Assembly (NCBI GenBank): GCA_051117555.1
Contig: JBNPEG010000083.1
Coordinates: forward strand, 46,172 to 62,249
Direction of reading: 5' to 3'
DNA length: 16,078 nucleotides
From: Elainellaceae cyanobacterium
Lineage (GTDB): Bacteria; Cyanobacteriota; Cyanobacteriia; CAZCXK01
Position 1 is the first letter of the stretch; the number at the start of each line of letters is the position of its first letter. Positions 417-15,957 of the stretch are shown here, in pieces. The notes below the pieces were generated by a model. The model saw nothing but the letters and a program-made list of their open reading frames with translations. It was not told where the DNA came from and did no database searches. The position numbers were made by a program, and so were the translations under genes.

Positions 417-449
417 AAGCTTTGGATGGAATATAAGGAATATTTTGAT

Positions 450-730
450 AGAGCCAGACAACTCTTCAGCGAACTTACCAAGATATCTGGCTCTGGGTTA
501 TTTTCGGAAGGCGTTATCACCCTCACAGGAACAGGTCTGGACTCCCAGTTGTACGCCCGATAAAATCCCTTTTACCAGTTCTGACTGTTGGGAGTGCTTA
601 CGCAGACACGCACACCACCCGAAAACCAACATTGTTGTTGATGTTGTCGGGGGAGTTCCTGTTCCGATTCGCCGAACGACAGTTAATCGGATTGTTGTAC
701 CAGGAACCGCCGCGTTTTAATGCCTGCCCC
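450..730 (-). ncRNA. Putative DGR template RNA (short leader + TR + structured 3' spacer)
   Basis: Contains TR and complementary segments 723-730/528-535, 589-595/541-547, 507-524 and 450-458/486-494. No convincing ORF. Confidence 0.65.
597..715 (-). repeat. DGR template repeat (TR)
   Basis: 119-nt ungapped match to 941-1059; 14 of 15 mismatches are at minus-strand adenines of this copy. Conceptual translation RGGSWYNNPINCRSANRNRNSPDNINNNVGFRVVCVSA*, with 10 AAY codons. Confidence 0.96.
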
Positions 731-745: not shown

Positions 746-856
746 CGCAATGATAGGTCATTCTGTTATTTTTTGTTGATTCGGTATGGCATGCCACATT
801 CCTACAGAGATGATGTAGCAGTCAGAAAATGGGTAAGTCTTGATCAAGAAATTTTT

Positions 857-940
857 TTGCGCGCAAAGCGCGCAAGGGAAAGAGAGCTAAAAGCGGAAGC
901 GCTGAGGGCTAAAGGGCTAAAGAGCAAAGAAAAAGGAATC
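857..940 (-). promoter_or_regulatory. DGR target cis-elements: IMH region, pyrimidine-rich tract and GC hairpin
   Basis: After the VR stop codon come GATTCC, then CTTTGCTCTTTAGCCCTTTAGCCCT, then the hairpin TTGCGCGC-TTT-GCGCGCAA (857-875). Confidence 0.7.
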
Positions 941-1059
941 CTTACGCAGACACGCACACCACCCGAAAACCAACATCGGTGAAGACGTCGCCGGGGGAGC
1001 TCCCGGACCGATTCGCCGAACGACAGAAAGTCGGATTGTTGAACCAGGAACCGCCGCGT
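941..1059 (-). repeat. DGR variable repeat (VR), 3' end of the target gene
   Basis: Encodes RGGSWFNNPTFCRSANRSGSSPGDVFTDVGFRVVCVSA*; an adenine-mutated copy of 597-715. Confidence 0.96.
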
Positions 1060-2273
1060 AGAATCCGTATATCGCTGTCTCCGCCTATGTTCCAGGCACT
1101 TCCATCCGTGGGTGCATCTTGATAATTTTCATGCCAATAATCAAGACACCATTCCAAAACAGTCCCATGCATATCAAACAGCCCAAACGCATTGGCAGAG
1201 AAACTACCGACGGGTGTTGGTTTCTCTCGATATTCTCCTTTAGGAGCTGAGCCATAGATATAGTTGCCGTTATAGTTTGCCAGGTCAGTCGTGATTGTTT
1301 CGCCAAAATGAAACGGCGTTTGAGTTCCGGCACGACAGGCATATTCCCATTCGGCTTCGCTCGGCAAACGATACTCAGTTTTAGTTTGTTGAGACAGGCG
1401 CTCACAAAAGGCAATCGCATCATGCCAACTCACGCCAACGACGGGCTTATCAGGCACAACAAAGCGGTCATTATCATATTGCGTCGCAGGATTAGTTCCC
1501 ATCACCGCTTCATACTGCGCCTGCGTGACAGGAAACTTGCCCATGGAAAATGGCGAGACATTGACCCGATGTCGAGGTAGTTCTCTTGCAAAATACGTCT
1601 GATACTTTTCTTCTCCAACTTGGCGAATCAATTCTTGCGTTTCTGCACTCGTCTGTCCTATCCAACATGTTCCAGATGGAATCTGCACCATCTCTAGCGT
1701 GACACCATTGCCCAAGTTTTCGGCAAAATATTGAGCCTGTTGGCGCTGACGCTGGATTTCTTTACCCTGTGCATTCACCTTTGCCACTTCAAAAGAAAAT
1801 GACTTTAGCGCAGATGATGAAGACGGAGTGGCAGAGACGCTAGGTGATGATGATTGCGTTGGTTTGCGTCCTGTAATACCCCAAATTAGCTGCGTCATTG
1901 GTTCAGGATGTGGTTCTCGAAAGTCTACCCAGTGAAACCCTTCCAGAAAAATTGGCAGAGTTGGCTTTACTGGAGCAGATGGTAAAAGAACGGGAATGAC
2001 AGGCAAGTCCTGCTTAACGAATGCGCGAATATAAGCACGCATCTCTCGCTTTTGCCAGGGGCCTAAGCCCGCTTCGCCTACAAACACTGCGACGCAGTTG
2101 ATTTGTCTTATCTGTTCTTCTAAAATCTCTTGCCAATCAACACCGGGTCGAAGTTCCCACACGTCAAGCCAGGGTTTGAGCTGATGGTGCCGAAGCTGTT
2201 CGGCAATTTCGATGACAGCAGGCTTATCTTCGCTGTTGTGACACAGGAAAACATCAAATTGCCGCTCGGTCAT
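942..2273 (-). CDS. TIR-domain + FGE-sulfatase (SUMF1/CLec-fold) protein; DGR target
   Basis: N-terminal FDVFLCHNSEDK...WLD.WEL.PG..WQ...WQKREM (TIR_2-like), Ser/Pro linker, C-terminal PVTQAQY, PVVGVSWHDA, YRLPSEAEWEYACRAG, NAFGLFDMHG, RGGSW, GFRVV. Confidence 0.93.
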   Translation of the reverse strand: MTERQFDVFLCHNSEDKPAVIEIAEQLRHHQLKPWLDVWELRPGVDWQEILEEQIRQINCVAVFVGEAGLGPWQKREMRAYIRAFVKQDLPVIPVLLPSAPVKPTLPIFLEGFHWVDFREPHPEPMTQLIWGITGRKPTQSSSPSVSATPSSSSALKSFSFEVAKVNAQGKEIQRQRQQAQYFAENLGNGVTLEMVQIPSGTCWIGQTSAETQELIRQVGEEKYQTYFARELPRHRVNVSPFSMGKFPVTQAQYEAVMGTNPATQYDNDRFVVPDKPVVGVSWHDAIAFCERLSQQTKTEYRLPSEAEWEYACRAGTQTPFHFGETITTDLANYNGNYIYGSAPKGEYREKPTPVGSFSANAFGLFDMHGTVLEWCLDYWHENYQDAPTDGSAWNIGGDSDIRILRGGSWFNNPTFCRSANRSGSSPGDVFTDVGFRVVCVSA

Positions 2274-15384: not shown

Positions 15385-15957
15385 TAGCAACCTAAAATAG
15401 GTTTTGAACAAACATTAGAATGAGGAGGAGTCGTTAAAGAGCATTTTAGACAAACTGATGGAGACCCTTGAACAGTTTATTGAGAGCAACCCGAAGCCCC
15501 GAGAACTCAAACGTGCTGTTGCCGTGCAAATGAGTCAACGAGGCCATACCTATCGAGAAATCCGTGATGTGCTTCAGGTGTCGCTCGGGTTTGTGACCGC
15601 TTGCTGTCAGCGCTATGAGGAGCAAGGGGTGAAGGGTCTCAAGTTGAACTACTGGGGAACGCAGGGCTATCTTAACCCCAAACAGAAGGAAGAACTGATG
15701 GTCTGGTTGGCTCAGAAGGATGCTTGGTTACTGGAGGAGGTGGTTGAGCATATCGAAGACGCTTATGGCGTGGTTTACCAATCCTCCCAGAGCTACTACA
15801 CGCTACTGAAGCAAGCCGGATTCAGTTGGAAAAAGTCACACTCAACCCACCCGGATAAAGATGAGACGCAGGTGGAGGAAAAAAAACTGAAATCATGGAA
15901 TTACTGGTGCAGTGGCGGGCCGAAATTGCTGCTGGCAATGTCCGAGTGATGTTCTTA
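15383..15957 (+). mobile_element. IS630-family element, left part (interrupted)
   Basis: TA + TAGCAACCTAAAATAGGTTTTGA left end, followed by an HTH transposase ORF. Confidence 0.85.
15458..15957 (+). pseudogene. IS630 transposase N-terminal part; -1 frameshift at an A8 run, then interrupted
   Basis: RELKRAVAV, YGVVYQS.QSYY.LL..AGFSWKK. The A-run at ~15879-15886 leads in the -1 frame to TEIMELLVQWRAEIAAGNVRVMFL, which breaks just before the expected catalytic D. Confidence 0.85.

Follow-up and report, generated by a model that had tools for sequence, protein, structure and literature searches.

Described systems and the locus under study

Among the variable proteins of cyanobacterial diversity-generating retroelements (DGRs), TIR-like N-terminal domains are listed with the less common ones (Vallota-Eastman 2020, PMC7517822), and the same survey has most of these proteins predicted to be cytosolic and remote targets to be common, a subject also covered in PMC5758913 and PMC4143802. 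The present study concerns a TIR–C-type lectin (TIR-CLec) gene and the template RNA gene beside it in a 16,078-nt window, i.e. the whole stretch of DNA analysed (G000:C81:46172-62249), of an Elainellaceae cyanobacterium whose 6.06 Mb genome, G000, is assembled in 256 contigs. The TIR-CLec protein (P0001) resembles the variable proteins of that survey in its C-terminal CLec domain, in a variable repeat (VR) at the 3′ end of its gene and in a grafted N-terminal domain. However, the survey tied remote targets to a template repeat (TR) adjacent to a reverse transcriptase (RT) at an identity of at least 50%, whereas the remote target on contig C81 has a TR of its own, with 86% identity.

CLec/FGS domains with N-terminal effectors and a linkage to DGRs have been described in conflict systems (Kaur 2020, PMC7159879), and an ‘antigen sensor’ with TIR effectors has been proposed (Doré 2024, PMC10907252; PMC7159879). 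These systems are of the RT/Avd/CLec type with TIR, caspase and MoxR-vWA partners, and two cassettes of the present genome, on contigs C8 and C116, belong with them. The C81 locus differs in that sensor and TIR domain share one chain of 443 residues, with no NTPase, vWA or adaptor, and in that its surroundings are housekeeping genes. Incomplete and trans-served DGR loci are discussed as well (PMC10907252), but in the trans cases given there the VR matches the TR of another locus, whereas the C81 VR matches a private one. Since TIR–DGR fusions and the antigen-sensor proposal have already been published, TIR-CLec is not a new kind of protein, and the idea of an antigen sensor joined to a TIR effector is an existing hypothesis. 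New here are a template-RNA gene private to its target, the conserved scaffold of this RNA with a long-range helix (P0) bracketing it, and a first count of cyanobacterial satellites, by which we mean target modules with a private template and no Avd or RT. A loosely worded search of the literature found nothing specific on private or orphan TRs among the matches listed, and the supplements of DGR surveys may list cases.

A DGR target with its own template

The gene, its domains and its template are laid out as follows.

942..2273, minus strand: TIR-CLec gene (P0001), an intact open reading frame (ORF) with an ATG start, 443 residues, Pfam TIR_2 and FGE-sulfatase
1887..2252, minus strand: TIR domain, residues 8-129, Pfam TIR_2 at E 1.5e-25
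2043..2045, minus strand: codon of Glu77 (W73-x-x-x-E77), candidate catalytic residue, aligned with 7uxr, 9mud and 4lzp
1806..1862, minus strand: Ser/Pro-rich disordered linker, approximately residues 138-156, from the sequence and a predicted local distance difference test (pLDDT) score <50
957..1694, minus strand: CLec domain of the FGE-sulfatase subtype, residues 194-439, Pfam E 1.2e-51
935..1059, minus strand: VR, codons ~406-443 and 7 nt beyond the stop, 86% identity with the TR
591..715, minus strand: TR, AAC/AAT-rich and non-coding, a 125-nt repeat of the VR with the DGR pattern

TR and VR are direct repeats on the gene strand, 125 nt each, with the TR lying 220 nt downstream and 17 mismatches between the two. 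At fourteen of these positions the TR has an adenine (A>T in six cases, A>G in six and A>C in two), always in codon position 1 or 2, which is the pattern of a DGR target beside its near-identical TR; adenines were changed at 14/29 positions compared with 3/96 for the other bases (Fisher p = 2.9e-8), and the TR reads as an Asn-rich (AAC/AAT) form of the VR. The three non-adenine differences comprise two at the repeat end, 2 and 4 nt beyond the stop, and a T>C in codon 415. [quoted passage not shown] In the first 88 nt, only 1/62 non-adenine positions differs between the TR and its own VR, compared with 21/62 between the same TR and the VR of the orthologue in G002, a genome of the same genus, a comparison that speaks in favour of recent writing of the TIR-CLec VR.

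The pairing of this template with this target appears to be exclusive. The genome has 10 FGE-sulfatase genes, and the C81 TR matches only its own VR among them, any other VR reaching at most 68% identity, and the RT-linked TRs match the C81 VR at 62–65%. Each of the three TRs of the genome fits its own VR or VRs best, that of C116 its upstream target (84%) and that of C8 three targets (80–89%).

Much of the gene anatomy had been proposed in an earlier, sequence-only reading of this stretch. The position of the ORF was borne out exactly by the ORF list and translation, a Pfam check returned the N-terminal TIR domain, the Ser-rich linker is present, with residues 138–172 falling below a pLDDT of 50 in the whole-protein AlphaFold model, and the predicted CLec domain does end in a VR whose mismatches are adenine-biased. 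The claim that transmembrane segment and signal peptide are lacking also held, none being evident and the highest 19-residue Kyte–Doolittle mean being 1.47, and the protein is probably cytosolic. That reading had the domains right, but it overlooked the strand, which is minus, and the absence of RT and Avd from the locus.

RT and Avd are encoded elsewhere in the genome

A search of the genome contigs with the RVT_1 profile gave no match on C81 and matches only on C116, C8 and C222. On C81, the 12 kb past the TR contain no ORF for RT or Avd, and the 226-nt spacer between VR and TR held no avd or RT remnant scoring above shuffled sequences, so that the locus does not form a complete cassette in cis. 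Two complete bAvd–RT cassettes are present elsewhere, one on C116 (Pepco, a caspase-CLec target, bAvd, RT and TR) and one on C8 (VMAP-C, a MoxR-like AAA protein, a 911-residue CLec target, bAvd, RT, TR and a CLec-only target). As there is no RT or Avd at the locus, hypervariation of the C81 copy would depend on service in trans. Avd–RT pairs elsewhere and an intact RNA scaffold beside the private TR (see below) are the traits of a trans-served satellite, and the C81 module, which has both, may be used in trans. We regard it as very likely that the DGR target on C81 has a TR and an RNA of its own, for which RT is available only in trans, and, with less assurance, we think it probable that the module is served in this way at present or was so recently.

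The template is an RNA gene with a conserved scaffold

The following features surround the TR.

857..875, minus strand: GC hairpin TTGCGCGC-TTT-GCGCGCAA, ~70 nt past the stop, resembling target–avd spacers
750..779, minus strand: site resembling a promoter, TCAACA-18-TATCAT, on the upstream side of the template RNA, from a consensus scan, weak
723..730, minus strand: GGGGCAGG, the 5′ box of P0 (a long-range helix), located 8 nt upstream of the TR and pairing 8/8 with the 3′ box
528..535, minus strand: CCTGTTCC, the 3′ box of P0, situated between P1 and P3 and pairing with the 5′ box
445..598, minus strand: 3′ domain of the template RNA, structured (helices P1–P4 in model R1), 159.9 bits
385..416, minus strand: 32-nt palindrome without mismatches, with a T-rich run after it, a self-inverted BLAST match

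Conservation of the ~150 nt that follow the TR (598..445) extends to the post-TR regions of the C116 and C8 cassettes and of three elements in a related genome, G003. RNAalifold analysis of these six elements gave 41 pairs, 20 of them with compensatory changes, and the covariance model R1 found matches in 40/151 cyanobacterial genomes sampled, representing 33/81 genera. Across 34 aligned elements, 96.1% of cells were paired and 36/41 pairs had changed on both sides, whereas none of 500 shuffles scored as high and slid registers paired at no more than 52%, although this alignment was fitted to the model itself, which favours the structure. For P0, a perfect partner at equal distance was present in 21/34 elements, compared with 1.5 expected from shuffled boxes, and its boxes comprise 16 distinct pairs with covariation at 5/8 positions. 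The copy in the window retains 40/41 pairs and all eight P0 pairs, and is 83% identical with the C116 copy and 63.5% identical with that of C8. No Rfam 15 family matched the template RNA, the only returns being sub-threshold CRISPR-DR28 matches on repeats of the repetitive extragenic palindromic (REP) type and one chance miRNA. Judged by its sequence, the C81 template is a private RNA gene consisting of a 5′ box, the TR and a structured 3′ domain.

The first ~100 nt of the spacer after the target resemble the target–avd intergenic regions of the C116 and C8 DGRs (scores of 47 and 69, with shuffles reaching 29 at most), and the hairpin at 857–875 may serve as a target-recognition element or as a terminator. 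The palindrome at 385–416 is possibly the end of the template RNA; a terminator scan did not report it.

Flanking RNA has a precedent in the Bordetella phage DGR, in which the template requires both upstream and downstream flanking RNA for cDNA synthesis (10.1101/2023.10.23.563531; PMC6182149), and a TR RNA of 265 nt has been reported (PMC4143802). The BPP-1 DGR RNA (the 3′ end of avd, the TR and a spacer) and the RNA described here are alike in that the template is flanked by RNA, the 5′ box here pairing across the TR with the 3′ domain, but the gene order in this genome is avd, RT, TR and RNA domain, the 3′ domain has no Rfam match, and the C81 RNA gene stands without avd or RT.

A further R1 domain of the same genome was seen in a different setting. 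At G000:C89:184-700, the diversified-looking 3′ end of a 1014-residue CLec gene runs directly into an R1 domain (108 bits) with no separate TR, and a tRNA-like sequence lies downstream of this element. This could be a VR to which over-long homing added the RNA domain, or a gene into which a TR was fused.

The TIR-CLec family is hypervariable in Nature

Two-domain homologues of ~440 residues with 50–59% identity are common in the protein database, from sources such as Aphanizomenon, Dolichospermum, Microcystis and Calothrix, Microcystis aeruginosa NIES-87 and Calothrix sp. NIES-4071 being among the names given. A homologue from the same genus, P0115, is named by its sources as from Elainellaceae cyanobacterium. 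We aligned 68 family members, namely P0001 and 67 others, drawn from the 106 further two-domain proteins that the top 120 matches contained. In this alignment 31 pairs had an identity of 97% or more outside the VR block, and 26 of these were no more than 78% identical inside it, the remaining five being identical there; for P0022 and P0037, 407/407 positions match outside the VR and 59% inside. Because proteins nearly identical outside the VR differ heavily within it, the family has been diversified in Nature and is demonstrably hypervariable at the VR, as the sequence-only reading had supposed of the receptor. Across the family, entropy averages 2.79 bits over 13 VR codons taken to bear adenines, compared with ~0.9–1.0 elsewhere, this set being slightly off in that it took in P414 and left out codons 412, 415 and 421, whose entropies are 2.66, 3.51 and 2.82 bits. 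Corrected, the TR codons with adenines number 15, namely 411–413, 415, 416, 421, 423–425 and 428–433.

The full-length architecture was found in 4/401 species genomes, with four candidates scored per genome. In a locus search with the family alignment, 1/76 loci matched from residue 8 and the rest started at residue 90 or later; these relatives were mostly CLec-only because the pattern EAEWEYAC dominated the search. With the three other full-length loci added to the 76, an R1 element was present at 7/79.

The lectin domain resembles that of TvpA

The first whole-protein AlphaFold model was poor in the CLec half (pLDDT <50 over residues 317–425), and a CLec-only model on a more diverse alignment was used instead, for which 15 of 150 listed representative proteins were taken, the listing consisting mostly of long multi-repeat FGE-sulfatase proteins. 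This model, from a 56-row alignment, had a pLDDT of 96. By VIA-align it matched PvdO (Z 31.9) and the DGR variable protein TvpA of Treponema denticola (PDB 2Y3C; Z 30.7, root-mean-square deviation 2.1 Å over 231 residues, 32% identity), and a phmmer comparison of P0001 with TvpA gave an E value of 3e-25. The two proteins share the CLec fold of the subtype named after formylglycine-generating enzyme (FGE), an N-terminal β extension and a C-terminal VR, to which the alignment of the model extends; P0001 thus has the CLec/FGE-sulfatase fold with C-terminal variable residues that marks a DGR variable protein. TvpA is a surface lipoprotein, whereas P0001 carries a TIR domain and is probably cytosolic. 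TvpA has been described as a single-domain protein with its VR at residues 285–329, and variable residues are solvent-exposed in every solved CLec DGR protein (PMC6328139). Given the TvpA-like fold and this general exposure, the VR residues of P0001 are by homology expected to be solvent-exposed.

FGE activity was considered for this domain and rejected. The catalytic cysteine residues of human FGE (2aft), C336 and C341, align with Asn412, a VR residue, and with C417 respectively. Since one of the two positions is a VR residue, the CLec domain of P0001 is, from its alignment, not an FGE enzyme.

The TIR domain keeps the WxxxE glutamate

In the whole-protein model the TIR domain has pLDDT values of 70–93, and with Foldseek it matched TIR folds at TMt 0.61–0.77, for example MyD88 (8yym) at 0.76. 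The glutamate of the WxxxE motif is the catalytic residue of TIR-domain NADases. The sequence-only reading had pointed to the Glu in WQKREM (residues 73–78) as lying at this position, and W73 and E77 indeed line up with the motif in solved bacterial TIR domains (7uxr ‘nWteyEl’, Cat1 9mud ‘dWcwdEl’ and 4lzp ‘qWparEl’); in the family alignment W73 is invariant and E77 is present in 67/68 members. P0001 therefore has both the TIR fold and the WxxxE glutamate of a TIR-domain NADase. It shares these, and the combination of sensor and TIR domains within one chain, with the oligomerization-activated TIR NADases (SARM1, TIR-SAVED, TIR-STING, AbTir, BtpA and Cat1), but its sensor has a DGR-hypervariable lectin fold and is not a nucleotide-binding domain, its identity to solved TIR domains is low (best E 8.4e-5) and its activity and assembly are putative.

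Two paralogous TIR proteins are encoded in the same genome: a 304-residue protein at G000:C197:24795-25709, with a TIR domain 58% identical with that of P0001 and a C-terminal domain of unknown type, and a 325-residue TIR-GUN4 fusion at G000:C145:1429-2406.

Origin and recurrence of satellite modules

The CLec domain of P0001 is 72% identical with that of the C116 caspase-CLec protein, and the RNA domain and the REP-like repeats after it are common to C81 and C116. Given these features and the resemblance of spacer and hairpin, the C81 module appears to be a duplicate of a C116-type cassette that lost avd and RT and carries a different N-terminal effector. The G002 orthologue and the C81 gene are 82% identical overall. 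At the G002 locus (L016, G002:C40, 8165-9537), the CLec half is 81% identical and the TIR domain is a different allele (50%) resembling the TIR domain of the TIR-GUN4 protein on C145 of the present genome, which looks like effector-domain swapping.

The first 68 of 73 R1 matches, the five weakest rows having been dropped, were classified by their distance from DGR-type RT matches (C116 RT query, E ≤ 1e-25).

Within 3 kb of a full RT: 32/68
Adjoining a partial RT match: 5/68
Full RT present in the genome, but no RT closer than 3 kb: 15/68
Genome without a DGR-type RT match: 12/68
Only a partial RT elsewhere: 1/68
Too close to the contig start to classify: 3/68

High-coordinate contig ends were not considered in these counts, which leaves the finished or near-finished genomes G116, G133 and G009 unaffected, and the satellite arrangement recurs in complete genomes such as G116 and G133. 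Two G003 satellites have private TRs as well, with 16/19 and 13/16 of their mismatches at adenines. In the single-contig assemblies G012, G145 and G023, R1 domains occur without a DGR-type RT match by the same query and threshold; their template genes may be stranded ones, unless a divergent RT is encoded there.

Neighbouring sequences

The other ORFs of the window are housekeeping genes, among them those for a DEAD-box helicase, RuvC, an M20 peptidase, a glyoxalase, an adenylate cyclase, CCB1 and DNA polymerase III δ. Near the contig end, at 15458–15949, an ORF has HTH_33, HTH_23 and HTH_32 matches, as in the N-terminal part of IS630-type transposases. At 1–352 there are tandem and dispersed REP-like repeats of ~136 nt with a CCCGCGCAGGCGGG hairpin; part of the repeat unit gives the CRISPR-DR28 matches mentioned above, and the same repeats occur at C81:44978-46523, C75:26635-27213 and C116:40571-40682 and 45266-45374. 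Among them, at C81:45250-45744, lies a Y1_Tnp/IS200-like ORF of the REP-associated tyrosine transposase (RAYT) type, and repeats and ORF together are probably a REP/RAYT system.

Proposed mechanism and alternative explanations

We propose that TIR-CLec is a cytosolic single-chain sensor-effector, combining a lectin face written by a DGR, a flexible linker and a TIR domain with an intact WxxxE motif, and that its locus is a satellite DGR module composed of a target with its VR, a post-VR hairpin and a private template-RNA gene. The template RNA would be bound by the Avd–RT of one of the two complete cassettes, most likely that of C116, and copied with adenine-specific errors, and the resulting cDNA would replace the VR. 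A ligand, probably multivalent (a phage protein, for instance), would bind the variable face and bring TIR domains together, and the clustered domains would cleave NAD+ or generate a TIR-derived signal, so that the infected cell of the filament would stop growing or die. We infer in this scheme the trans service, the present activity of the C81 copy, the NADase activity, the ligand-induced clustering and the immune role. By analogy, ligand-triggered TIR activity in an antibody-like sensor is plausible, and we see an even chance that the TIR domain is catalytically competent, as a NADase or as a source of signals, and is activated against invaders when ligand clusters it. Taken whole, the sensor-effector served in trans is the best single account of the locus, ahead of a relic or a regulatory sensor, and we would give it a probability of roughly 0.55.

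Several observations weigh against this account. The promoter consensus scan returned three sites where 2.6 are expected by chance, and is thus no better than chance. The T>C change in codon 415 shows some drift, the neighbourhood is not a defence island, and at the other three full-length TIR-CLec loci there was no R1 element within 1.3–1.5 kb on either side of the gene. G002 lacks the segment corresponding to 442–932 of the window (spacer, TR and RNA domain), with a junction at an ATTCCTT microhomology; its gene is split into a 157-residue TIR ORF (50% identical) and a 290-residue CLec ORF, and neither an R1 element nor a match to a DGR-type RT turned up in a search of that genome. Such a module can thus be dispensed with, and it decays. 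In addition, ongoing VR rewriting is presumed from a single assembly, and the use of the private TR by a distant RT and TIR catalysis and oligomerization in P0001 are predicted.

Of the alternatives, the one that survives best is that the locus is a frozen relic, a decayed cassette whose avd and RT were lost and whose VR is no longer rewritten, leaving a fixed specificity or a gene on its way to becoming a pseudogene. The contig without RT or Avd, the one non-adenine mismatch within the VR and the G002 orthologue, with its TR/RNA unit deleted between ATTCCTT microhomologies and its gene in two ORFs, would all fit such a history, as would the 12/68 R1 elements in genomes without a DGR-type RT match and the incomplete DGR loci described in Thiohalocapsa (PMC10907252). 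We nevertheless think this rather unlikely: the ORF is intact, the TR retains its AAC/AAT codons with a single non-adenine difference in 62 positions of the first 88 nt, the RNA scaffold is almost completely paired, two intact Avd–RT pairs are available, one of them with an 83% identical scaffold, and the arrangement recurs in complete genomes.

Less probable again is a non-immune regulatory sensor, in which the lectin would tune recognition of self, kin or the environment for signalling or filament development and the TIR domain would be a signalling or adaptor module and not a suicide NADase. A tuning of regulatory pathways has been proposed for cyanobacterial DGR targets (PMC7517822), the genome fuses closely related TIR domains to GUN4, which binds tetrapyrroles, and to an unknown C-terminal domain, and the gene sits among housekeeping genes. 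However, the complete DGRs of this genome diversify parts of conflict systems, caspase-CLec with Pepco and VMAP-C/MoxR/CLec, types that are assigned to anti-invader defence (PMC7159879 and PMC10907252), and the catalytic motif is kept in nearly every family member.

Bacterial TIR domains can also signal via ADP-ribose-type products, and a Thoeris-like role, in which a separate effector would be activated by a cyclic ADP-ribose isomer made by the TIR domain, with no NAD+ depletion by the domain itself, seems to us quite improbable. The TIR domain does resemble that of ThsB, but the matches are marginal and partial (PADLOC E 2.9e-4, Pfam E 0.032) and no ThsA-like or other effector gene adjoins it, the neighbours being housekeeping genes, so that the locus does not constitute a Thoeris (ThsB and ThsA) system. 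Finally, an enzyme of the FGE/SUMF1–EgtB–PvdO family, as suggested by the source annotations of homologues and by PvdO and FGE being among the best fold and sequence matches, is scarcely credible for a domain that has a hypervariable residue at the Cys336 position, keeps only the Cys341 equivalent and ends, as TvpA does, in a DGR VR.

Implications

The satellite anatomy bears on the assignment of remote targets, since surveys usually seek TRs only beside RTs. The template RNA with its scaffold forms a self-contained unit of ~300 nt that should work with an RT in trans, which is relevant to the engineering of DGR-based mutagenesis. On a wider scale, we suggest tentatively, and with somewhat less confidence than in the account of the locus itself, that filamentous cyanobacteria run a network of ‘one enzyme, many private templates’, in which each effector-fused sensor owns its template RNA and shares an Avd–RT acting in trans, which the conserved scaffold of the RNA (the P0 bracket and P1–P4) would recruit. 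If this is true, the R1 scaffold would serve as a portable ‘address tag’ by which templates become usable in trans, and several receptors would be rewritten independently by one enzyme, loosely like antigen-receptor loci sharing a recombination machinery. The effectors TIR, caspase and MoxR-vWA would each be placed on a lectin sensor, with TIR-CLec as the minimal single-chain receptor-effector. DGR-diversified cytosolic lectin proteins of multicellular bacteria may act as anticipatory immune receptors, and TIR-CLec, in which binding, clustering and NAD+ loss would all reside in one chain of 443 residues, is about the simplest construct in which to examine this hypothesis.

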